DNA of 64,000 bases from a phage (GCA_011816565.1 GCA_011816565.1_3614.1), one strand, 5' to 3'. Shown: positions 20,882 to 64,000, numbered from the stretch's first letter. Notes: generated from the sequence alone by a model not told the origin. Numbers and translations: made by a program.

Positions 20882-21145
20882 TCAGAAACCCTCTAAAAAG
20901 CTCTTGTAGAAAATAATTTCAGTATCAACACCAGTCACGATCTTGTCGTTCCTGATTTCATCGGTAAGATAGGTGTCAAAACGCAGAACCTGTGTGGTAT
21001 TGTCGCACATCCACTCAGCTGTGACCATGGCGAAAATCTTAGCATCTTCATTATCTGGTGTAAATGTTACCACCTCACCACATTTAAATTTTTCGATAGG
21101 TTGCGTGTTAGCTTTCGGTTCTGCAATAGTGATTTTCGTGGTCAT
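20882..21145 (-). CDS. hypothetical small protein (paralogue set)
   Basis: 87 aa; similar size and pattern to neighbours. Confidence 0.4.
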   Translation of the reverse strand: MTTKITIAEPKANTQPIEKFKCGEVVTFTPDNEDAKIFAMVTAEWMCDNTTQVLRFDTYLTDEIRNDKIVTGVDTEIIFYKSFLEGF

Positions 21146-21411
21146 TACTCTTCCTCCATAGTTTCACCAAATACTTCGATACGAGCATCGAGCTCGGTTG
21201 CTTTCAGCTCCCCAACAAAATATTTTAGTTCTTTCTTGTCCAGATCGTAAGCCCACACACAAGAAGAACATGCAGATTTCACAATCAGCAGCGTAGATAC
21301 ACGACCTGACTCTGTGATCATGCTCACAATGGTTCCCACAGGGAACGTGTTGATAGCTTTTTTAACTGGGCGTTCAGCTTTAATTACTACCTCTGTTGCC
21401 ATAAATAACAT
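21145..21411 (-). CDS. hypothetical small protein (paralogue set)
   Basis: 88 aa; similar size and pattern to neighbours. Confidence 0.4.
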   Translation of the reverse strand: MLFMATEVVIKAERPVKKAINTFPVGTIVSMITESGRVSTLLIVKSACSSCVWAYDLDKKELKYFVGELKATELDARIEVFGETMEEE

Positions 21412-21417
21412 CCTCTC

Positions 21418-22899
21418 TTACTTAGCGTACTCGATTAATTCCACAGTTTTCCCAAAGCTAGGGATATAATTTTTATTATACCCTTCGGTGAGAACCCATA
21501 AAGTATCGTACTTTTTCCACTTGTTGTCAACAGCCTTTTGTTCAAAGTTATGCTCAAAGTATAGGTCGGTCAGGACGATGACATCTTTTGCATTCGGTAT
21601 GTTGGCATCCAGATACTCGAACACGCAAGCAGCTGTTGTGCCCCATGTTGAGTGTACCTCATAGTTGATCATCTCGTCTATGTTGCCGCGAGTGTATACT
21701 TTAACCTCTCCGACTTCAGTTGACCAACAGAACATTGTAACCTTAAACTCTTTATACAGATTGCACAATCCGGTGATTTCATTGAACATTTTCTTTAAAG
21801 TTCTTTGAGAGATCGAGCCAGAAACGTCTAAAGCTACCACAATATCTATGGTGTTTTCCGGATTACGACCAGGAACAATAACGTGCTGGTTCTTGTTTAT
21901 AGCCCCAACTTTTCGCATTGTGCTGGTCAAAGACCCAGATCGGCGACCAGGTTTTCTGTAGGTCAGTTCAGCCTTTCGTTTAGACAACATGCGTTGCTTG
22001 ATGATGTCTATATAATTAATTACAGGCTTACCTCTATTCTTGACAAACTCACGAACCGCCTCAGGGCAACGGCCTCCGGAAGCTTGCATTGCTGCCTCCA
22101 GCATGTCACCAGAGTCCTGCATGGCCTGATCTTTATCAGATTGACTGATTACAGGTTGTGGCTGATCATACCCCATAGCCTTTCCAAGATCATCACTGGT
22201 GCCACCGTTACCACTCATGTGATCATCGGTTTGTCGCTTATCTTCTTGAGAGTTCTCACCTTTACCGCTCTTACTTTTACCGTTATTCTGATCTCTTTGC
22301 TTATCAAGAACTGCATAAACGTTCTCAGCAATCCATCCATGAAACTTCATGTCGCAGTAGCAGCTGGCTAAGAAGCCAAAAGGCTTACCTTTCACGAACG
22401 TAGTGCTTTTCCCCTTCGAGAAGAAAACACAAGGAGGTTTGCTAAAGTCAACCACAAGGCCTGTGTTGATAACGTGATCACAAGCAATATTGAACAGTTC
22501 CGGCTCAAAGCTTTTACCACGGACCAGGTGATCACAGATAATATGCCCCACCTCATGCGACAGAAGAAAGGCCACCTCTTTCACAGATTTGGGGGAATAG
22601 AAAACCTCAGCCATCTCAAACTGCTTGTCAGTTAGAGAGGCCTTAAGAATAGCCTTGCGTTCATCAGCCAATCCCATAATGAACTCAGGGCTGTAATAGA
22701 TGCGTTTATGGTCGGTTGCCATGGTGGAGCACCATGTGTGGTTTTCTACGAACTGCAACCCTGACAGCAGTGTGCCATAAAACGGCAGCTTTTCAAGGAG
22801 ATACATACGTGCAGCCTGCAACATTCTCAGGGCATCATCTTTCTGTGAGGCAACGATTTCTGAACTTCTGCTATCCATTAAAACTCCAGAAGGGGCCAT
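21418..22899 (-). CDS. putative metallopeptidase (HExxH) / VWA domain protein
   Basis: N-terminal HEVGH motif; C-terminal MIDAS-like motif (VVALDVSGS); acidic/Gly-rich linker. Architecture typical of partners of MoxR AAA+ ATPases. Confidence 0.55.
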   Translation of the reverse strand: MAPSGVLMDSRSSEIVASQKDDALRMLQAARMYLLEKLPFYGTLLSGLQFVENHTWCSTMATDHKRIYYSPEFIMGLADERKAILKASLTDKQFEMAEVFYSPKSVKEVAFLLSHEVGHIICDHLVRGKSFEPELFNIACDHVINTGLVVDFSKPPCVFFSKGKSTTFVKGKPFGFLASCYCDMKFHGWIAENVYAVLDKQRDQNNGKSKSGKGENSQEDKRQTDDHMSGNGGTSDDLGKAMGYDQPQPVISQSDKDQAMQDSGDMLEAAMQASGGRCPEAVREFVKNRGKPVINYIDIIKQRMLSKRKAELTYRKPGRRSGSLTSTMRKVGAINKNQHVIVPGRNPENTIDIVVALDVSGSISQRTLKKMFNEITGLCNLYKEFKVTMFCWSTEVGEVKVYTRGNIDEMINYEVHSTWGTTAACVFEYLDANIPNAKDVIVLTDLYFEHNFEQKAVDNKWKKYDTLWVLTEGYNKNYIPSFGKTVELIEYAK

Positions 22900-22911
22900 T
22901 GGCCCCTGTCA

Positions 22912-23955
22912 TTATTTAACGTGTTTGAAAATACCTGCCAACTCAGTCATTGTCATGCGAGTGGTCTTCATAAGATCTGTCATGGCTTTTTCCATAATTG
23001 GAGATACTACCATAAAGTTTCCTTTAGTGAAACCTTTATTCCAGTCGGTCACCAACAGCGGTTTAAGTCCAGCTCCGAGACGTTCACCAGTTAAAGCACA
23101 GCATTTGCGAATATATGAACTCTTAAATTGGCTGAACGACAGATCAACTTTCATACCTGCATCGTAGAACGTTTGACAATAGAAAGTGTAAGCCTTAGCA
23201 ACCTCAACATCATCAGGCAGTGCAGGAACCTCTTCTGCAATCTCCTCTTCGACCTCCTGAGGCTCTTTTTCCTCTTCAGAGTTCTGTTCTTCAATTTCTT
23301 CTGTCACAGTTTCGTTTACGATATCTGAAATGTGTTTGTTGGCTGCACGATCAGCCATGAAATTTTTAAAGTCCTGCATTGGTGACATATCTTCTTCCTC
23401 TTCGTCAAAAAGTGCTAGTTTATCTTCTTCTGTCCCGTATTGCAAGATGAAATCTTCGAAAGTATAATCACCTTTCAATTTCTCCATACGCTCTTCGCTC
23501 AGGTGGAGCATCATCTGCTGGACAATTTTTCGATCAGTTTTGTCTTTTATCAATATTGCAGTCTTTTTATCTACCAGACAGTCCTTCAGAGCGTTGCACC
23601 TCAACCCTACCACACAACAATTATCAATTGCGTAAGGACCTTCATCATCTATCCGCTCCAGAGATGGATAGAAAGGATTTCCCAGTCCGTTTTCATCTGT
23701 GTGCATGTCGAAAGGTATAAGGGTGTAGTCGCATACCCCTTCCCCTAAAAGTTTTTTACCAAATAGTAGGTATTCTTCCCACGACAGGTCGAACTCTATA
23801 TCTCGTTTCCGTGCATTATTCTGTTTGCGTCTATATTTTTTGAGCAGGCGCTCTAACTCTTCTGGTGTATAATATTTTTCAAGATTCATGAGTTGTCTCT
23901 CGTGCTCTGTAAGTGAAGAAATCTTATCAATTGTCTCAACAGATGTCAACATCAA
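22912..23955 (-). CDS. tandem HNH-like nuclease-domain protein
   Basis: Two repeats of a C..YT/TG ... S-L-E-R-I-D-D ... DN motif separated by a highly acidic linker; motif resembles zinc-ribbon/HNH homing-endonuclease cores. Confidence 0.4.
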   Translation of the reverse strand: MMLTSVETIDKISSLTEHERQLMNLEKYYTPEELERLLKKYRRKQNNARKRDIEFDLSWEEYLLFGKKLLGEGVCDYTLIPFDMHTDENGLGNPFYPSLERIDDEGPYAIDNCCVVGLRCNALKDCLVDKKTAILIKDKTDRKIVQQMMLHLSEERMEKLKGDYTFEDFILQYGTEEDKLALFDEEEEDMSPMQDFKNFMADRAANKHISDIVNETVTEEIEEQNSEEEKEPQEVEEEIAEEVPALPDDVEVAKAYTFYCQTFYDAGMKVDLSFSQFKSSYIRKCCALTGERLGAGLKPLLVTDWNKGFTKGNFMVVSPIMEKAMTDLMKTTRMTMTELAGIFKHVK

Positions 23956-23962
23956 AAACGTG

Positions 23963-23991
23963 TTGACTTTACTCTAAATCTCCGATATAGT
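23963..23991 (+). promoter_or_regulatory. sigma70-like promoter (TTGACT-N17-TATAGT)
   Basis: Near-consensus -35/-10 with 17-nt spacer in the divergent intergenic region upstream of 24032. Confidence 0.5.
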
Positions 23992-24031
23992 GCACCCATT
24001 CGAAAGAAAACTAACATAGGAGCACTCACTC

Positions 24032-24931
24032 ATGGCAAATCTTAACAGTTTTAGTACGCGGTGGCAACAGGATATAACAACCAATCTTTCAGCTGGAGAC
24101 ATCCTTTCTGCAATTTACGAGGCTTTAGATGATAAAGCTACTTCAAAAGCGGTTTGTACCAACCCATTAATTCCTATAGTGATGAAGGTTATTGAGCGTA
24201 GATTGGTATCTGGGTCTGATAAGTGGACATATTTAGATAATGAAGGACACACCTATTCCAATGGGTACGTCGATATAAAAGTAGAATACGCGGTATCATA
24301 CCGCCGGAGCGGTTCTGTAACTTTCAACTTCTCTGGAGGTTTTCGATCTCTGGCTACCTCACCTTTTGTTTCCGCAGAGGAGAAGTATGAGCTGCCATTT
24401 CTTTGGATGATGGCTAACGCGACAGGAAAAACCCCCGTTAGCATCCGAGTAAAATACAACTACAACGGATCTAGTAAGATCTATGCCGAAAGTGTCTCAG
24501 CAAGTTTTTATTTTGTGATGGGGGATGGAATCCTCAAACATATAAAGATGTGCGATATGCATGATGTTATAAATGAAGTGACTGATAAGAATGTTCTAGT
24601 GAAAGACCTCAACAATTTTTATACACCCGGAGACTATTACGTCAGCCGTCCACTGTGCATCTTTAATGCCGCACACCCTTTAGGTGAGTATTTGATCGCC
24701 AATAGTGATATTGCCAATAACCGCTTCGAGGTAGCAAGAGTACAGAATGAGGTATTGACATCTTGCAAGAGCGGTGATAAGTTCACCGAAGAAGAGATGG
24801 GCGTTTTAGAAATGATGGGATATAAGTGTAGCCTTTGGGTAGATGAGGTGTTTAATGACGGCATCTATGGACAGGATATTTACCCGTTAAAGAAGTATAC
24901 TGATTCCAGTTTAATTTGCGCGGAGATTTGA
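24032..24931 (+). CDS. hypothetical protein
   Basis: 299-aa ORF with RBS (AGGAGCAC) downstream of promoter. Confidence 0.55.
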   Translation: MANLNSFSTRWQQDITTNLSAGDILSAIYEALDDKATSKAVCTNPLIPIVMKVIERRLVSGSDKWTYLDNEGHTYSNGYVDIKVEYAVSYRRSGSVTFNFSGGFRSLATSPFVSAEEKYELPFLWMMANATGKTPVSIRVKYNYNGSSKIYAESVSASFYFVMGDGILKHIKMCDMHDVINEVTDKNVLVKDLNNFYTPGDYYVSRPLCIFNAAHPLGEYLIANSDIANNRFEVARVQNEVLTSCKSGDKFTEEEMGVLEMMGYKCSLWVDEVFNDGIYGQDIYPLKKYTDSSLICAEI

Positions 24932-24933
24932 CT

Positions 24934-25206
24934 ATGATGAAGGCATGTGGTAGTGTATACTATGTGGGTGAAAATGTTCAGGCAGACAATGTGTGGAAAT
25001 CCATTAAGTCCACCACCGATGATGCCTTCTTGAGCGGGTTATGTTTCCCCAATCCAGGGGACATCCTTCCTCACCCTGGAGATTTTGTTGTTAACAAGAT
25101 GGACGGTTATACCGTGTGCCTGATGGTTGAAAAAATCTTTTTAGACACTAGACACAATCACCGTCTTGTGTTAAAATTTCAAGAATGTAAAATGACAATT
25201 GCCTAA
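24934..25206 (+). CDS. hypothetical protein
   Basis: Start moved to the in-frame ATG after the upstream stop (track ORF began at 24916). Confidence 0.4.
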   Translation: MMKACGSVYYVGENVQADNVWKSIKSTTDDAFLSGLCFPNPGDILPHPGDFVVNKMDGYTVCLMVEKIFLDTRHNHRLVLKFQECKMTIA

Positions 25207-25219
25207 GGAGGCCTTACCG

Positions 25220-25576
25220 ATGTCTAAAGCTACTTATCGTGCAGCTATTTACTGCAATGAACACCCCATCAATAATGATGGTCACTGCCTTTTTAAAGAA
25301 AATCAGTTGGGCTGTATTGTCCTACCTGATGAAGGGAAAGGTTATCTGATTGCATTGACAGGGTTCGAGCCTGAAGCTTTGGAAGCCAATCTGGACTATC
25401 TGGTAGAAGAGGGTGCTGCAGACCTGGTTTCCAATGGCCTCGCCATAAGCCTTGACGAGGTGGAGCGCTTCATGGGCAATTACCGTGTAGTGCGTGAGTT
25501 TACTATCGAGGTGGAAACTCCAGAGTGGGGTAGCACTGAAACTAACGCCGAAGAAAAAGAAGAGGAGGCAGAATAA
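25220..25576 (+). CDS. hypothetical protein with acidic C-terminus
   Basis: Start at internal ATG preceded by AAGGAGG (track ORF from 25199). Confidence 0.45.
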   Translation: MSKATYRAAIYCNEHPINNDGHCLFKENQLGCIVLPDEGKGYLIALTGFEPEALEANLDYLVEEGAADLVSNGLAISLDEVERFMGNYRVVREFTIEVETPEWGSTETNAEEKEEEAE

Positions 25577-25833
25577 TGAAAGTGCAGATCTTGACTAATG
25601 CCGAGAAGATGTTTATTGAAGATACACCTTTTGAAGCTGGTGAGCTACAGTTCGTTTATTTTGTTGACTTAGATAAGGTGTTCCCTGCACTGAATCTGGG
25701 TCTGGATGAAGTTCCTCATAAAGTTTTGTGCCAAGTTGTTCGTGCCTTAGCGGCAGATGGGGATTTCCACACCCTTGAAGATATCCAGACCTACGGGTAT
25801 CTTGAACTGCAACGAGAAGAAGAGGTGGACTGA
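25576..25833 (+). CDS. hypothetical acidic protein
   Basis: 85 aa; start overlaps upstream stop (TAATG). Confidence 0.45.
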   Translation: MKVQILTNAEKMFIEDTPFEAGELQFVYFVDLDKVFPALNLGLDEVPHKVLCQVVRALAADGDFHTLEDIQTYGYLELQREEEVD

Positions 25834-25835
25834 TA

Positions 25836-26216
25836 ATGGCCCGGTGGAAGACAACAGTTGACCTTCATGATCAGTGGTTAGGACGCATCGCTGAAGACGG
25901 GAAACTAGTAGAGTGGGACAATAAGCATGTTAGCGAGTTGGCAAGCATTGTGGCTGGCAAGTTACGCTCCAAGTTCCCTGAACAACTGGATCCTGATAGT
26001 TCAAAGTTCGATCCTGAGTTGGAGGATGTTGTATACTACTTCGATACCGTGGATGACTACGATGCGTGGTTTGCAGCACGGGAGCTTTACCCACAAGGCT
26101 CTGCTATGCGCCAGATGGAAGAAGATTATCCTCCGTGTGAGCAATTCAATAGTGCAATGACTTGCCTCTATGATTGGGCAGATAAGAACCTTGTCTGGAT
26201 TCGGACTGCATTTTAG
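25836..26216 (+). CDS. hypothetical acidic protein
   Basis: 126-aa ORF in operon-like array. Confidence 0.45.
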   Translation: MARWKTTVDLHDQWLGRIAEDGKLVEWDNKHVSELASIVAGKLRSKFPEQLDPDSSKFDPELEDVVYYFDTVDDYDAWFAARELYPQGSAMRQMEEDYPPCEQFNSAMTCLYDWADKNLVWIRTAF

Positions 26217-26260
26217 TGGGCAGGAATGGCGGCAAGGATGCTGCTTAAGGAGTAGTAGAG

Positions 26261-26530
26261 ATGTTATACCAGCAATATGAACTTCGTGCAGAAAAAGAGT
26301 TAAATTTTGACAAAGATATTCACAGATATTATTATGGGAAAGTTAGAGGGCAAGCAAGAAAGTGTACTCCAACACTCTTTTATGCCAGCAGACGACTAGC
26401 GCCAGAAGAGGCAACAGCAGAAAGGGTTGCGTACAACTGGAGAGTCACGTATGATATTGACAGATTCGATGTGATATCTGTTTTGGAAAACTTTGAAAAC
26501 ACTTACACACAAGTAGAGGACTTTTACTAA
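26261..26530 (+). CDS. hypothetical protein
   Basis: 89 aa; stop overlaps start of the AAA+ gene (TAATG). Confidence 0.45.
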   Translation: MLYQQYELRAEKELNFDKDIHRYYYGKVRGQARKCTPTLFYASRRLAPEEATAERVAYNWRVTYDIDRFDVISVLENFENTYTQVEDFY

Positions 26531-27714
26531 TGTCAAGAAACGTATTCGAAAGTGGTCAAATCACTGTCCGTGAGTTGCCAGCTATTATTCAGTTTGCCCA
26601 ACGTCATAGCCGATCTGTCCTAATTTTGGGACCAATGGGTGTGGGTAAAAGCCAGGTGATGAAGCAGATCGCTGATAATATGTTCGGTGAGCGAGATGAC
26701 AACCTTGTTGACGTGCGACTGTCAGATAAAGATCCTGCCGACTTATCTGGGCTACCTATCCCTGTAGAAGCGGATGGAACTACACGTACAGTGTTTGCAA
26801 TTCCAGAATTTTGGCCTGCGGATCCTGACTGGAGCGGAATTATCTTTCTGGATGAGCTCACTCATGCAGATAACTACCTGCAAAAGGTTGCAATGCAAAT
26901 TATGCTTGACCACAAGTGCGGCACCTATGCATTCCCTAAGGGTTCTGTTTTTGTGGCTGCGGGTAACCGTTCTACAGATGGTGCGGTTCTTTCGGCGCTC
27001 GAAGCCCCTCTGGCTAACCGTTTTATCATTGTAGAGGTTACAAGCAATGCAGAGGTGTTTATTGAGGACTACGCATTCCTTAATGGGGTGCACTCCTCTG
27101 TAATTGGATATCTGAAAAGAGTTCCATCAGCTATCGATAATTATGAGGCCATGGCTGAGATTAATTGTCCATCTTTTGCCACACCGCGATCTTGGGTTGC
27201 TGCATCTGATATCTTGCACGATTTTGACAGCGGTATTATTTCTGACGCTATGGCCCGTGTTCTTCTGCAAGGTGCTATTGGTCACACTGCAGCGGTAGAG
27301 ATCTGGACATACCACACCAAGAAACGCAATTTACCGGAAATCGGTCGGATTATGGCAGGTGGCTGCAAAGAATACGTAGGCCCTAAGCAGCCAGACATTT
27401 TGTGGATTCTTGGATCTGAAGGTTGTATCGCTATTCGTAATATGATGGAAAATGCAAGTATCTCCGACGAAGATCTTGTTAGCTGTGTGGCAAACTTCCT
27501 CGATTTCCTTTGGGAAAACTTCAAGGACGAGAACCGAGATTTTGTATTCTCAGTCTTTATGGCGATGATGAAACCTAATGCCTTAGGAAATGCCTTGCTT
27601 ATCGGTAAAGGTCGTGACAAGATTGTTGCTCAGCTGATCAAAGCATACCCAAACCTGATGAAGATTGTAAAAGAGTTTGGTGAAGAGTTTAGCGCCATTT
27701 TGGCTAAAGCTTAA
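26530..27714 (+). CDS. MoxR-like AAA+ ATPase
   Basis: Walker A (GPMGVGKS), Walker B (IIFLDELTHA), length and layout of the MoxR/AAA_5 class. Confidence 0.6.
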   Translation: MSRNVFESGQITVRELPAIIQFAQRHSRSVLILGPMGVGKSQVMKQIADNMFGERDDNLVDVRLSDKDPADLSGLPIPVEADGTTRTVFAIPEFWPADPDWSGIIFLDELTHADNYLQKVAMQIMLDHKCGTYAFPKGSVFVAAGNRSTDGAVLSALEAPLANRFIIVEVTSNAEVFIEDYAFLNGVHSSVIGYLKRVPSAIDNYEAMAEINCPSFATPRSWVAASDILHDFDSGIISDAMARVLLQGAIGHTAAVEIWTYHTKKRNLPEIGRIMAGGCKEYVGPKQPDILWILGSEGCIAIRNMMENASISDEDLVSCVANFLDFLWENFKDENRDFVFSVFMAMMKPNALGNALLIGKGRDKIVAQLIKAYPNLMKIVKEFGEEFSAILAKA

Positions 27715-27723
27715 GGAGGTTGT

Positions 27724-28104
27724 ATGGCTAAAGTAGGTAAGCGGGGAAACTACCTGGTGGTATTGACCGAGGAGCCGGAGAAGGAGTACGAATGCAGCTC
27801 CACTTGCGTGATCGATATCCGAGAAAAAGATGTAGATGAAATCTGGTTTAAAATATTGGACGCTTGCGATAGCAGTGATTATTTCTTCATCTATGTCAAC
27901 GATAAGGCTGGGTTCTTCCATGACGACGGAGAGTTGCCGTATGAAATCTATGAACTTGTAGAGGCTTGCCATCGTGGAGATGCGGAGTTGTTTGGCTTAC
28001 GGCTGAAAAGCGGTAAATTCTTCTATCAAGATGAGTGCATGAATCTTCATAACTTTGTAGAGGGAACTTGCAACGATGGAGAGATTTTGGCACACTACGA
28101 TTAA
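27724..28104 (+). CDS. hypothetical protein
   Basis: 126 aa with RBS (AAGGAGG); followed by terminator. Confidence 0.45.
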   Translation: MAKVGKRGNYLVVLTEEPEKEYECSSTCVIDIREKDVDEIWFKILDACDSSDYFFIYVNDKAGFFHDDGELPYEIYELVEACHRGDAELFGLRLKSGKFFYQDECMNLHNFVEGTCNDGEILAHYD

Positions 28105-28116
28105 TTTCTAATACCA

Positions 28117-28143
28117 CCCCGCTTCGGCGGGGATTTTCTATTT
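28117..28143 (+). terminator. rho-independent terminator
   Basis: CCCCGC-TTCG-GCGGGG hairpin (identical stem-loop to 1765-1780) followed by ATTTTCTATTT. Confidence 0.6.
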
Positions 28144-28152
28144 GGAGTTATT

Positions 28153-28653
28153 GTGAAAATTAAGATCTTTGCTATTATTTTGAGCGCATTTTTATCGCTG
28201 CCTGTTGTTGCAGCACCAAAACAAAAAGTATATCATACTTGCAAGCCCTCAGATACTAAGGAAAACATTTTGGCATGTAATATCTACAGGGAAGCTAGAG
28301 GGGATGGCACGATGGGTATGCTGGCATCTGGGTTTGCCACATTAAACAGGAAATCTCACCCTAAATACCCAGACACTATAAGAAAGATTGTCTACCAACC
28401 TAACCAGTTTTCGTGGACAAACCACGGCAAAACTTTTAAGGTGACAGAAAAAGATTCATGGGATCACGCTAAAAGTCTTGCAAAGATGCTTCTAAAGGTC
28501 TATAATAACAACCATGTTGCATACATGGCTATGGATATAACAGGTGGAGCAACACACTACCATACAACCAAAGTACGACCGAAATGGGCAAAAAAGATGC
28601 AGAGGACAGCTCAATTCGGGAGCCATATCTACTACAAGGAGCGCAATAAATGA
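28153..28653 (+). CDS. secreted SleB/CwlJ-like cell wall hydrolase
   Basis: GTG start; N-terminal signal peptide (MKIKIFAIILSAFLSLPVVAA); Hydrolase_2 family signature (NIYREARGDG...GM...NR...IVYQPNQF). Confidence 0.55.
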   Translation: MKIKIFAIILSAFLSLPVVAAPKQKVYHTCKPSDTKENILACNIYREARGDGTMGMLASGFATLNRKSHPKYPDTIRKIVYQPNQFSWTNHGKTFKVTEKDSWDHAKSLAKMLLKVYNNNHVAYMAMDITGGATHYHTTKVRPKWAKKMQRTAQFGSHIYYKERNK

Positions 28654-31848: not shown

Positions 31849-33218
31849 TGGAAAAAGGGCAGTATGATGTAGGCACAGATGCTGCCCTCGTTGCAATCAT
31901 GAGCGGTGAGAATGTCTTCGTTTCAGGACCTGCAGGTTGTGGGAAGACGTATCTCATCAACATGATCCAGTCAATGTATGGAGACTCTTGCATAACGGTT
32001 GCCCCGACAGGGGTAGCCGCTTTAAACGTTAATGGAGCAACAGCACACCGAACCTTCGATCTTGCAGCAGGTGTGAGCATGGAGTCAGACTGGACCGCAA
32101 TAAGGGCAAAAACAGCAAAGCCTTTGAAAAGCAAGGCATTTACCATCCTAATTATCGATGAAATCTCTATGATCCGTGCTGATAAGTTTATAGAGATGGA
32201 TAGGAAACTTCGCTTCCTTCGAAAAAATGACAAACCTTTCGGAGGCATACAGGTCATATTGTTTGGCGATTTTTACCAGGCACCTCCTGTTGTCTCTTCT
32301 ATGGAGAAGGAGGCCTACTTCAACTTCTACCACACAGACCTATGTTGCTATACCGAATCTTGGAAAGAGCTGGACCTTCACAACATAGCCCTAATAGACC
32401 AGTTCCGACAGGAGTCTATTCGATTTGCCACAATGCTCAACTGTGTTCGTGAGGGTCGTCGCATAAAAGAGGTTGTAGCAGAACTTAATGCTCGCTGTTA
32501 CAAAGGCGGTGTACCAACAGACGCTCTCACAATTTGCGCCACCAACAAACAAGCAGAGGAAGTGAACAGAAGGTTCTATGATGCCATCAACGCCCCAGAG
32601 AAGGTATACACTGGTGAAATGAAGGGTAAGTTTCCCTCCACCCTGCCAGTTGAGCAGGAGATGAAGTTGAAAATTGGCATGAAAGTTATGATAACCGCCA
32701 ACGATGTTGACCCGACGCACAAAGTACCTTATTATGTTAACGGAACACGTGCCACAATTGTTAAATTTAAGAACAAGGCGGTGGTGGTAGAGCTTGAAGA
32801 TGGAACACAGGTTGACATAGAGCAGAGGTTGTGGGAAAATAACGAGTATAAGCCATCTCAGAGATACAACATTGCAGAAAGGAAGATGGAGAAGTTTATA
32901 GAGAGGGTAGTGATTGGGTCATACAGGCAACTCCCTCTGAAATCTGGGTATGCCGTAACATCTCATAAAAGTCAAGGACTTACGCTAGATTGTTACAACC
33001 TGGACCTTGGAAAGAACGGAGCTTTCTCTCCTGGGATGACGTATGTTGCTTTGAGTCGGGTTAAGACAATACAAGGAATAAACTTGTTGCGTCCACTAAG
33101 AGAAGTTGACATTATTGTTGACCCGCGAGTCGTAGAGTTTTACAATACAACATTCCCTGACTTAGACAAAATTGTCAGGAAAGATTTTGAAACCAGAGCC
33201 GAAGAGGGGGACGTATGA
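31848..33218 (+). CDS. dda: Dda-like SF1B DNA helicase
   Basis: Walker A (GPAGCGKT), motif Ia (APTGVAA), Walker B (ILIIDEISM), GDFYQAPPV, motif V/VI (YAVTSHKSQGLT; YVALSRVK). Confidence 0.65.
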   Translation: MEKGQYDVGTDAALVAIMSGENVFVSGPAGCGKTYLINMIQSMYGDSCITVAPTGVAALNVNGATAHRTFDLAAGVSMESDWTAIRAKTAKPLKSKAFTILIIDEISMIRADKFIEMDRKLRFLRKNDKPFGGIQVILFGDFYQAPPVVSSMEKEAYFNFYHTDLCCYTESWKELDLHNIALIDQFRQESIRFATMLNCVREGRRIKEVVAELNARCYKGGVPTDALTICATNKQAEEVNRRFYDAINAPEKVYTGEMKGKFPSTLPVEQEMKLKIGMKVMITANDVDPTHKVPYYVNGTRATIVKFKNKAVVVELEDGTQVDIEQRLWENNEYKPSQRYNIAERKMEKFIERVVIGSYRQLPLKSGYAVTSHKSQGLTLDCYNLDLGKNGAFSPGMTYVALSRVKTIQGINLLRPLREVDIIVDPRVVEFYNTTFPDLDKIVRKDFETRAEEGDV

Positions 33219-33556
33219 GTTTGTGGAGAAATATAGTTAACTACGTGTGTGGCAATCCAACTCCTGAAGAGAAGGATGTTGTGATTCACGATTTTACTAA
33301 AAGATCCCGTGAAAAAGATCTACTGTTAACAAAGGTGACTGATAAAGACCCTGCAGTAGGGGACTGGGCAGGTTTTGCGTTTACATCGGACAAATACACC
33401 TTTAACAAAGGTGACTACCTTGTTGTGGATTTTAACGAAGACATTGAGGGTGCTGAACCTTACTATCAGACCCTTATTGTTGCAGGGTGTGTTAATCTAT
33501 CTGCAGGCATGCACAGTTTGATTCTTTTTGAGCTTGACTCTGAAGACCTTGAGTAG
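33215..33556 (+). CDS. hypothetical protein
   Basis: 113-aa ORF overlapping the helicase stop by 4 nt. Confidence 0.45.
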   Translation: MSLWRNIVNYVCGNPTPEEKDVVIHDFTKRSREKDLLLTKVTDKDPAVGDWAGFAFTSDKYTFNKGDYLVVDFNEDIEGAEPYYQTLIVAGCVNLSAGMHSLILFELDSEDLE

Positions 33557-62295: not shown

Positions 62296-62313
62296 TTTTT
62301 AACTGAATTATCA

Positions 62314-62338
62314 AGGGGCCTTAGCCCCTTTCTTTTTG
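62314..62338 (+). terminator. rho-independent terminator
   Basis: AGGGGC-CTTA-GCCCCT hairpin followed by TTCTTTTTG. Confidence 0.6.
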
Positions 62339-62947
62339 TCTGCTCTTCCCCCTACCATAAACGGCCCTACCTGACAAGTGGAATAATTGACGAGCCATCA
62401 ATCCCGCACACTGTACAAATATACATGTAAAATAGTTATTGCATAACCTTTCATTGTGTGGTAGCAGGGCTATTTTTACCCGTTTTCCCTTCCAAAATTG
62501 CACGTAATGCCGCTATTGCACAAATTTTAACCTGATGCAGATCTTCAATATCTTGTCAACAAGTAAAAATTCTTATAAGTCATACACTTACACAAACTAA
62601 AAAGCGTGTTCTACGCGAAAAATCGAGTATAACTATAGCCGCCAGATCTCAGAATTCACGTACGCACGCCATTCTATAGCCTGCAAAGTATTTATTCCAA
62701 CCACAGAATAACGGAATAGCCAATACCTGCATAAAATAATTATTCGTGTAAACTGCATAACATAAATCAGCTCAGGTGTCAACATTTTTCGTAAACAGTC
62801 CGAAATTATCACGATGAGTTATCATAAACAGAGAAATCTTTAGTCGTCTAATGTTTACTGTACATTACTATACTGACTGGAATCATTAGATGACTAAGAG
62901 AAAGATAAGAAATAATTAATAATGTGATTATTTTACCTGTAACAATA

Positions 62948-63172
62948 AGGCAACTATGCAAACGAATGGCATGGCGCGACGGAGTCGCGACATAATATAA
63001 AAGCAGTAACCATCACCCCCGTGATAGTTTGTCTGCAAACTATTAATCAGATCATAGTTGCCTTGTATTTAGTTAATCATGACATAACAAGCAAGGCAAC
63101 TATAGATCTGCTAATAGTTGCCCTGCTTTTATATTATGTCATAGGAACGCCCGAAGGGGTGACCTAGTCACC
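62948..63172. repeat. palindrome/inverted-repeat cluster in AT-rich non-coding region
   Basis: ATAGTTTG-TCTG-CAAACTAT palindrome (63024-63043); AAGGCAACTAT/ATAGTTGCC in both orientations (62948, 63054, 63093, 63112); inverted pair CGCGACATAATATAAAAGCAG (62986) / CTGCTTTTATATTATGTC (63123); GGTGACCTAGTCACC palindrome (63158); ATGCAAACGAATGGCATGGC direct repeat (62956, 63230). Confidence 0.55.
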
Positions 63173-64000
63173 TGGCATAGCCAGCGAAAGATTATTAACT
63201 TGTCGATTGTTATCTTGTTAATTGTTTTCATGCAAACGAATGGCATGGCTTATCATCTATGCGTGAACAGTGAGGCATGCAATAGTAACAATTGTTATTG
63301 TATCCAGTGTGTTGAGTATGCCCAGTGTGTCACTATTATGTCATATTATGTCACAGTATGTCAGACAAGTTTTTCTCCTCTTTGTCAAGTGCTGCATGAA
63401 AAATTTACAAGCTTGTATGGTAGCATTTTTGCGGCCCTGTTTACATTCAGTAGTGTATGTATAATCCTTGTTGTGTGGGCGTTTAGACGTCTAGACGGTT
63501 GGAAGTCCACAGGTCAATATCTAATCTATCGGCTGCTAACTATATCCCACACAAATAGTAAGAAATATGATTGTTATATGCGTAAACTGTAACTCATGTT
63601 ATCAATCCCTGTATGGATCGCCAGTGGTGCGCATAATGGGTATTATGTTAAATTGCCAGTAATGATAACTATTCTCACAATGATAGGTATTCTCATTCAC
63701 TCCCACAAGATAGGTTGCAAATGTTGTGCCACTGTGTGAACGGCCTCACCTATTAATTTGCCTCACTGCCTCGATATTTGAGAATTGTTATAAGAATGAG
63801 AAGTATTCCCATTTCGTCCGCCTGGCAGCACTCCAGTCGCTACCGGCTCCTGACAGGGAGGCACTCCTGTTGGTCAGGTCAAAATCGGGGTAGAACTGGG
63901 CCTGTTCAGATATTTCTGGCTGACGCTTCAGGTCTGTGTGGGAAAAGACAACCTCCCCGACGGGGCAGGGGGGTGTCTGCTGGAAAATTGCAGGTCAATT

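Follow-up and report, generated by a model that had tools for sequence, protein, structure and literature searches.

Characterised MoxR ATPases typically cooperate with a partner protein carrying a VWA domain (PMC13036017; PMC7159879), and the locus described here raises the question of what such a pair does in a phage in which its two genes are encoded on opposite strands, 3.6 kb apart. The locus lies in a stretch of phage DNA of 64,000 nucleotides (GCA_011816565.1), hereafter called the window, and was found to contain a MoxR-type AAA+ ATPase gene on the plus strand and, on the minus strand, the gene of a partner with an N-terminal zincin (metallopeptidase) domain followed by a VWA domain. 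By their sequences and their gene order in other genomes, the ATPase and the partner are two halves of one conserved module. The explanation favoured here, with a probability of about 0.45, is that this module is an early-expressed, ATP-driven remodelling or protease machine acting in counter-defence; a first hint at function comes from another phage, Bas54, which needs an identical ATPase to overcome the predicted defence system DS-28. The two genes were located as follows.

21418 to 22878, minus strand: gene of the VWA partner with N-terminal zincin domain, 486 amino acids (longest open reading frame to 22899, 493 amino acids); homolog of N4 gp25 and bas54_0055
26530 to 27714, plus strand: gene of the MoxR-type (CbbQ/NorQ-like) AAA+ ATPase, 394 amino acids; homolog of N4 gp24, identical to bas54_0063

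The ATPase and its peptidase/VWA partner

Both open reading frames named in the preliminary description, 21418-22899 on the minus strand and 26530-27714 on the plus strand, were found to be present. The 7.2 kb around them was found to be 97-98% identical to Vequintavirus (rV5-like) myophages of Escherichia coli, such as navn, rV5 and Murica, and the source of the window is assigned from this sequence to a Vequintavirus isolate, near-equal to Bas54 in this region. Records of the navn, rV5 and Murica type were found to carry the gene labels 'MoxR ATPase' and 'metallopeptidase' or 'VWA-like domain protein' in GenBank already, and RefSeq versions carry 'HNH endonuclease' on the partner instead. 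The latter label (phrog_1314 in PHROG) was rejected, as no HNH family was found in the partner in Pfam or NCBIfam and the label is contradicted by the DUF2201 domains; N4 gp25 was also found among the proteins with this label, and an HNH domain was not detectable. Sixteen unannotated GenBank records named 'Campylobacter phage' (MG0656xx, host Campylobacter jejuni) were found to match the window at 21000-28200, with 97-98% identity for the six records listed. Their host label looks doubtful because the region otherwise belongs to rV5-like phages of E. coli.

The partner was found to contain the Pfam domains DUF2201_N 'putative metallopeptidase' (E 8e-29, 101.5 bits against a cutoff of 23.2) and DUF2201 'VWA-like' (E 3e-11, 43.9 bits against a cutoff of 26.4), both above the gathering threshold and in N-to-C order (PF13203 and PF09967). 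The following elements were located in its gene, in the numbering of the 493-residue frame.

22543 to 22557, minus strand: HEVGH zinc-binding and catalytic motif, extending to HExxHxxxxH with H124; D141 likewise invariant
22195 to 22266, minus strand: linker joining the zincin half to the VWA half, of low complexity and predicted to be disordered (amino acids 212-235)
21421 to 21852, minus strand: VWA domain with a complete metal ion-dependent adhesion site (MIDAS), D358-x-S360-G-S362 (DVSGS, 21814-21828), T421 and D445

The alignment of 40 homologs (mean identity 27%) was found to contain 13 invariant columns, 12 of which were the proposed active-site residues and adjacent glycines. These were H115, E116, H119, H124 and D141 in the zincin half, followed by D358, S360, G361, S362, G420, T421 and D445 in the VWA half, which complete the MIDAS. 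In the wider family, among 206 representatives, HExxH was found in 201 (98%), HExxHxxxxH in 198 and DxSGS in 99%. The linker residues 212-235 had a predicted local distance difference test (pLDDT) value below 50 in the AlphaFold2 (AF2) model, and the length of the linker was variable in the homolog alignment. A nearly invariant R319-R320 motif was found in a lower-confidence AF2 stretch just N-terminal of the VWA domain; as speculation, it may be a candidate ring-contact or processing site. The fold matches of the partner included the VWA domains of BchD and NorD. The assignment of an HExxH metallopeptidase with a VWA/MIDAS domain, as first proposed, is thus backed by profile, alignment and structure evidence.

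The true start of the partner gene is very probably the ATG at 22878, 21 nucleotides downstream of 22899, because it has a GGAG Shine-Dalgarno site, the homologs begin there, and three independent annotations (navn, Murica and Bas54) give 486 amino acids. The partner was found to have no match to the defence-protein models of PADLOC-DB, and NCBIfam and PADLOC gave no informative matches for the pair. In the literature on DUF2201 with MoxR and on COG3864, no member of the DUF2201 family was found reported as biochemically characterised.

In the ATPase, the Walker A motif GPMGVGKS was found at 26629-26652, followed by the Walker B motif IIFLDE at 26839-26856. The ATPase alone scored 16.7 bits against AAA_5 in Pfam, below the cutoff of 22, and the phage clade is divergent. 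Of the profile searches proposed with the preliminary description, those with the partner were therefore clearly above threshold for both DUF2201 domains, and that with the ATPase alone stayed below it. Full-length homologs of the ATPase (31-36% identity, E ~1e-44) were found to carry AAA_3 (PF07726) and AAA_5 (PF07728), and two scanned homologous ATPases (loci L002 and L166) were above both cutoffs. In an alignment of 33 sequences the residues G37, G39, K40, S41, D108, E109, N146, R147, R164 and R220 were found to be invariant, so that all AAA+ catalytic positions (Walker A and B, sensor-1 and the arginines) are conserved throughout; the best solved relative of the profile made from these 33 sequences was Midasin.

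The AF2 model of the ATPase (pLDDT 84) was found to contain hairpins at residues 75-90 and 129-134, which correspond to the helix-2 insert and the pre-sensor-1 hairpin. Both hairpins are typical of the MoxR/dynein/midasin clade. The top 12 Foldseek matches in the PDB were CbbQ2 (6l1q) and NorQ (9qh4-9qhg), including NorQ bound to the VWA domain of NorD, with TM-scores of 0.46 by query length and 0.64-0.67 by target length. The phage ATPase has an extra C-terminal helical region of ~120 amino acids, which is not covered by the ~260-residue NorQ and CbbQ structures. Sequence and model make the assignment to a MoxR-type, CbbQ/NorQ-like AAA+ ATPase a sound one, and it holds despite the sub-threshold Pfam score because of the full-length homologs with AAA_3 and AAA_5 and because of the fold. 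Compared as a single sequence with PDB sequences, the ATPase gave P-loop-only matches, and across both proteins such comparisons gave P-loop matches only, or none. Against the defence models of PADLOC-DB, the ATPase gave P-loop-level matches only (E >0.002). The label 'DNA repair ATPase' in public records was rejected as annotation spill-over.

Conservation of the pair and its split layout

In 80 IMG/VR loci collected by a search with the ATPase alignment, the partner was found downstream and on the same strand in 68. Eleven loci end at a contig edge and one is truly without a partner, which gives 68 of 69 evaluable loci. The partner gene was within 400 nucleotides of the ATPase gene in 65 of the 68, and the three remaining gaps were 548-610 nucleotides. 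In 80 bacterial-genome loci, mostly chromosomes of Campylobacterota, the genes were adjacent in 64 and separated by inserted genes in 9; five loci were truncated and two had no partner, so that 73 of 75 evaluable loci showed the same order and strand. The same arrangement was found in N4, in an N4-like contig and in jumbo phages, and in more distant phage relatives the ATPase was followed by the DUF2201 gene either directly or after four small genes. This near-universal adjacency supports the idea of a functional pair that had been put forward at the outset.

Clustered at 50% identity, the partner family was found to have 33,454 representatives at E <=1e-3. By tblastn against sequenced phages, the partner was found in 672 records and the ATPase in 813, and the records with members of the pair included N4-like podophages, Rak2-like and other jumbo phages, and cyanophages. 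The cellular copies were found in ordinary chromosomal operons, one of them beside HtpG, Hsp15 and thioredoxin. The operon of Sulfurimonas indica (L166, 4685-5947) was found to contain a gene of 420 amino acids with a weak DUF2336 match, which overlaps the MoxR start; this DUF2336-like gene, which has no counterpart in the phage loci, may encode a third part of the cellular module. The neighbours of the module were rIIA, rIIB and a helicase here and in N4, and thymidylate synthase and dCTP deaminase in other phages. Across loci only a SleB-like hydrolase and rIIA/rIIB recurred. A third conserved gene was not detected near the module, as none of 16 small open reading frames flanking it in the window had a homolog near the module in loci L002-L091.

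These neighbours and the structural matches bear on the idea that the pair is a chaperone for metal-cofactor insertion or enzyme activation, of the kind of NorQD, CbbQO or CobST, acting on a phage or host metalloenzyme, with HExxH as a metal-binding or delivery site and not a protease centre. The closest solved relatives of the ATPase being CbbQ and NorQ, the VWA domains of BchD and NorD among the partner's fold matches and the nucleotide-metabolism enzymes adjoining the module in many phages would fit this. The idea is nevertheless judged very unlikely, as the invariant HExxH glutamate is the catalytic base and not a ligand, no specific client enzyme gene is conserved beside the module, and the module is dispensable on E. 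coli K-12 and conditionally required in a defence-carrying host.

The split, opposite-strand layout was found only in rV5-type loci within the IMG/VR set. The same split was found in Seunavirus GAP31, again with an anti-sigma-like gene at the divergence point, and in a Klebsiella Vequintavirinae phage. In the phi92-like phage A5-4 the ATPase gene was followed by a homing endonuclease gene and then by the partner gene, all on one strand. The split layout is read as a derived trait of Vequintavirinae sensu stricto because rV5-type phages and GAP31 are split and A5-4 retains the one-strand order. The arrangement is therefore unusual, as the preliminary description held, being confined to this group against 68 of 69 viral and 73 of 75 bacterial loci with co-directional genes. 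Both genes were found to be kept with intact catalytic residues across Vequintavirus, Seunavirus and Mydovirus (43-100% identity). In A5-4 the HNH homing endonuclease gene (L174, 4868-5362) lies exactly between the ATPase and DUF2201 genes, which indicates that this junction tolerates insertions.

Genetic evidence from phage Bas54 and the proposed role

The gene order and gene lengths of Bas54 (Escherichia phage MaxBurger) were found to match those of the window with essentially no difference. The ATPase of the window is identical to bas54_0063 (MoxR ATPase) at 394 of 394 positions, and the partner is identical to bas54_0055 (putative metallopeptidase) at 476 of 486 (98%). Bas54 was studied in a transposon-sequencing preprint of the Harms laboratory (bioRxiv 10.1101/2025.11.20.689424), from which the following genetic data are taken.

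On E. coli K-12 both genes were non-essential, with insertions at 60 of 64 TA sites in the ATPase gene and 81 of 86 in the partner gene. On the clinical isolate CFE311 the ATPase gene was depleted with a log2 fold change of -7.23 (adjusted p = 0). DS-28, a predicted defence system of two genes, was cloned from CFE311, and a clean ATPase knockout was sensitive to it; according to the preprint, cloned DS-28 was the only one of the tested systems against which the ATPase was required. In the supplementary table that carries the CFE311 library in its header, the partner bas54_0055 was found to be depleted as well (log2 fold change -2.20, p = 0.0009, adjusted p = 0.009), and the seven genes between it and the ATPase gene were unchanged (log2 fold change -0.08 to +0.79).

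The Bas54 data argue strongly against an essential role in virion maturation and for a conditional, host-directed role. Virion maturation had been one of three roles considered in the preliminary description, together with host protein remodelling and counter-defence; it does not agree with the non-essentiality on K-12, and counter-defence gains genetic support from the identical ATPase. A chaperone-protease for virion assembly or maturation was proposed for jumbo phages by Iyer et al. 2021 (PMC7824862), and tail building in Acidianus two-tailed virus is the precedent cited for it (PMC7824862, PMC7159879). For Vequintavirus this is extremely unlikely and already largely refuted by the published non-essentiality, as saturating transposon insertion is tolerated in both genes without a fitness defect on K-12, Bas54 has its own prohead protease, and in all lineages examined the module was found outside the structural modules, in regions of early or replication genes. 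In the window likewise, the pair is not regarded as a virion gene set because it lies among sigma-70-like promoters and early and replication genes. The function of the pair, called unknown in the preliminary description, is no longer wholly so; the pair is annotated and described in the literature, and the identical ATPase of Bas54 is tied to DS-28.

For the counter-defence machine we infer a physical interaction, proteolysis, a target and early timing, in the following order of steps. A rearrangement in Vequintavirinae would have put one gene of the pair on either arm of a divergent region of early genes, where both could still be switched on together by host RNA polymerase. The VWA domain would dock onto the ring of the hexameric-type ATPase as NorD does on NorQ, where cryo-electron microscopy of NorQD placed a finger of the VWA domain in the ATPase pore and ATP hydrolysis was found to twist the linker of the partner (PMC13036017). 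The metal site of the MIDAS would grip an acidic residue of the target protein, ATP hydrolysis would pull or twist partner and target, and the tethered zincin domain would cut the exposed chain. The target would most likely be a host protein, the best current candidate being a component or product of DS-28. Both proteins are taken to be active enzymes because HExxH and DxSGS are kept in 98% and 99% of the 206 representatives and the AAA+ residues are invariant.

Several points weigh against this reading. The depletion of the partner on CFE311 is ~30-fold weaker than that of the ATPase and does not appear in the main text of the preprint, which links only the ATPase to DS-28. The knockout of a small unrelated gene, bas54_0140, was also DS-28-sensitive in the same preprint. 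The pair belongs to the core of all N4-like phages and was found in more than 600 phage genomes and in many bacterial chromosomes, which suggests a more general activity, since a factor directed at a single defence system would not usually be so widespread. The partner gene is separated from the leftward promoter candidate by a terminator-like hairpin, and the promoter and terminator elements of the region are themselves consensus matches. The interaction, the ATPase activity and the protease activity are deduced from sequence and by analogy, and the key genetic evidence comes from a preprint. The objections that weigh most against a simple anti-DS-28 reading are that the partner has a much weaker phenotype, that bas54_0140 is needed too and that the module is so widely conserved.

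The first two of these objections lead to an alternative in which the pair has become uncoupled in rV5-like phages, the ATPase acting alone or with another partner (e.g. bas54_0140) against DS-28 and the peptidase/VWA protein having a separate or minor role. The unequal effects on CFE311 (-7.23 against -2.20) point this way, as do the genes reported against cloned DS-28, which are the ATPase and bas54_0140 and not the partner, and the layout, in which co-transcription of the pair has been lost and the partner gene is preceded by a hairpin. Uncoupling is still considered unlikely: both genes are kept with all their catalytic residues in Vequintavirus, Seunavirus and Mydovirus, the partner is significantly depleted in the same host in which the seven genes between are not, and the MoxR ATPases characterised so far typically act with a VWA partner (PMC13036017; PMC7159879).

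The wide conservation also speaks for a general host-takeover or proteostasis device of the replication phase, which would remodel or degrade host or phage proteins and whose DS-28 phenotype would be indirect, for example through removal of a trigger or faster takeover. Besides the spread over the N4-like core, jumbo phages, cyanophages and 33,454 cluster representatives, this is favoured by the chromosomal versions in housekeeping contexts (such as that beside HtpG, Hsp15 and thioredoxin) and by the 27 Bas54 genes that are conditionally important on CFE311, including a DNA helicase. Such a device is judged quite unlikely, since disruption of either gene has no fitness cost on K-12 and the requirement is reported for cloned DS-28 specifically, out of the systems tested. 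The DNA helicase gene downstream of rIIB in the window (~31850-33220) is the ortholog of bas54_0068, which was non-essential on K-12 and strongly depleted on CFE311 (log2 fold change -6.32, q = 0); it is a further early gene of this region with a conditional requirement.

The pair is one of few gene sets common to very different phage families, and the family to which the partner belongs numbers tens of thousands of uncharacterised proteins in bacteria, no member of which has a known biochemical activity. Together with the pairing and motif evidence, the DS-28 clue yields a testable hypothesis, that of an ATP-driven counter-defence protease. A wider proposal, which is unlikely at present, is that the MoxR-DUF2201 pair is a modular two-component AAA+ protease serving as a broad counter-immunity weapon of N4-like, rV5-like and jumbo phages and of cyanophages. 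If it were true, host immune proteins would be caught at acidic residues or tails by the MIDAS, unfolded by the ATPase ring and destroyed by the tethered zincin domain; DS-28 would then be no more than the first victim to be identified, and the machine would descend from housekeeping ancestors represented by the bacterial copies.

For this window, nothing is new beyond the public annotation and the 2025 preprint; the feature is already known, having been annotated in many records, its class described in 2021 and a first function reported in 2025. The module was found to be unmentioned in CRISPRi-ART, in two other phage transposon-mutagenesis preprints and in an antisense-oligomer study. The present analysis adds an explicit connection of the versions in rV5, N4 and jumbo phages, synteny counts from which the split layout is read as derived, corrected gene starts, and the co-depletion of the partner gene, which is present in the published supplement and undiscussed in the text of that paper.

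The divergent region and the pair among known systems

The GC skew of the window showed a minus-strand block at ~16-24 kb with plus-strand blocks on either side. The divergence point at ~23.89-24.03 kb was found to contain back-to-back sigma-70-like sites, and the following elements were located in the region.

23921 to 23949, minus strand: leftward promoter candidate, sigma-70-like TTGACA-17-TAAGAT, with TG (consensus match)
23963 to 23991, plus strand: rightward promoter candidate, sigma-70-like TTGACT-17-TATAGT (consensus match)
26307 to 26335, plus strand: possible internal promoter, sigma-70-like TTGACA-17-TATTAT, 11 of 12 matches, within an open reading frame of 89 amino acids and 195 nucleotides upstream of the ATPase gene
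22891 to 22907, minus strand: GC-rich hairpin (7 bp, AGGGGCC-AAT-GGCCCCT) that separates the upstream gene from the Shine-Dalgarno site of the partner gene, a terminator- or attenuator-like candidate
28117 to 28132, plus strand: intrinsic-terminator-like hairpin CCCCGC-TTCG-GCGGGG with a T-rich tail, after the gene that follows the ATPase gene; ends the rightward unit and is annotated 'terminator' in Murica
22912 to 23889, minus strand: 'anti-sigma factor'-like gene, 325 amino acids (longest open reading frame to 23955), promoter-proximal in the leftward unit; given for context

The -35 boxes of the leftward and rightward promoter candidates were found to form an inverted repeat. In five Vequintavirus genomes both -35 boxes and the rightward -10 box were invariant; the spacer varied, as did a single position in the leftward -10 box. 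The hairpin at 22891-22907 is palindromic (it was flagged on the plus strand), and a 'terminator' is annotated at the equivalent place in Murica. In the leftward unit the partner gene comes second and follows this hairpin; in the rightward unit the ATPase gene comes seventh. The shared promoter region of the preliminary description therefore stands in so far as the pair flanks divergent promoter candidates; it does not stand as a direct arrangement, because neither gene is promoter-proximal and intervening genes, a hairpin and an internal promoter-like site lie between.

The anti-sigma-like protein was found to match phrog_3118, with weaker matches to the Srd and sigma-70-decoy families and no Pfam match; the label 'HNH endonuclease' on it was rejected, as an HNH domain was not detectable. 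The longest open reading frame of its gene overlaps the predicted leftward promoter, and the start is probably the ATG at 23889 because the Bas54 and Murica annotations agree on it and the PHROG alignment begins at residue 25.

The seven open reading frames between the pair were found to be mostly acidic, with isoelectric points of 4.2-5.4 and one at 6.2, as are most of those outside the interval. The acidity noted at the outset is thus correct for most of them and is not distinctive. These frames were considered as parts of the module and rejected, as they had no homologs near the module in any other lineage among loci L002-L091; they are read as lineage-specific early genes lying outside it. 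The frame of 89 amino acids at 26261-26530 was found to overlap the ATPase start (ATGA), and its Bas54 ortholog was non-essential and unaffected on CFE311. The label 'ATPase' or 'MoxR ATPase' on this frame in several records and in phrog_13164 was rejected as annotation spill-over, no ATPase motif and no Pfam match being found in it.

At the far end of the window, the region 62300-64000 was found to be gene-poor, with a GC content of 0.40, a GC skew near zero and no tRNAs. It contained repeats at 62940-63360, which were a 34-nucleotide repeat (63038 and 63098), an exact 20-nucleotide repeat (62956 and 63230) and an 18-nucleotide perfect inverted repeat (62989 and 63123). Judged by the offset of coordinates, its counterpart in Bas54 is the ~2-kb intergenic region without transposon insertions (HIDEN-SEQ preprint), which makes it a candidate for an origin of replication or an essential regulatory region.

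Among known systems is the pair of coliphage N4, in which gp24 (AAA+ ATPase) is a full-length homolog of the window ATPase (27% identity, E 3e-28) and gp25 (vWFA) a full-length homolog of the window partner (21% identity, E 2e-19). N4 shares the domain architecture and the presence of rIIA, rIIB and helicase downstream; it differs in that gp24 and gp25 are adjacent and co-directional, and the rV5 proteins are longer, with clade-specific insertions in the zincin domain and a longer linker. Both gp24 and gp25 are among the ~14 core genes of all N4-like phages (Schitoviridae), with function not known (PMC7650795; PMC2784036).

From computation, Iyer et al. 2021 described a MoxR-vWA pair with an N-terminal metallopeptidase in jumbo phages of group 2.2 and proposed a virion-assembly role without experiments (PMC7824862). 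The architecture of this pair is that of the window pair, and Rak2-like and other jumbo phages match both proteins with adjacent genes; the jumbo-phage pair is unlike the window pair in being unsplit, and the proposed assembly role is at odds with the Vequintavirus genetics.

The AAA_5/AAA_3 and DUF2201 operons of Campylobacterota and Gammaproteobacteria contain the same genes in the same order, with ATPase identities of 33-38%, and are chromosomal and not prophage-borne; their proteins are shorter, ~335-347 and 378-414 amino acids. The proteins of the Acidianus two-tailed virus pair are reported as p618 and p892 (Scheele et al. 2011). Like the window pair it is a virus-encoded MoxR and VWA pair (cited in PMC7824862 and PMC7159879), likened here by description; it differs in lacking a peptidase domain, in having a structural (tail) role and in belonging to an archaeal virus. 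NorQ/NorD and CbbQ/CbbO provide the best structural matches of the ATPase and the same logic of a VWA/MIDAS partner, and differ from the window pair in that NorD and CbbO have no zincin domain and function in metal insertion or in the activation of Rubisco.

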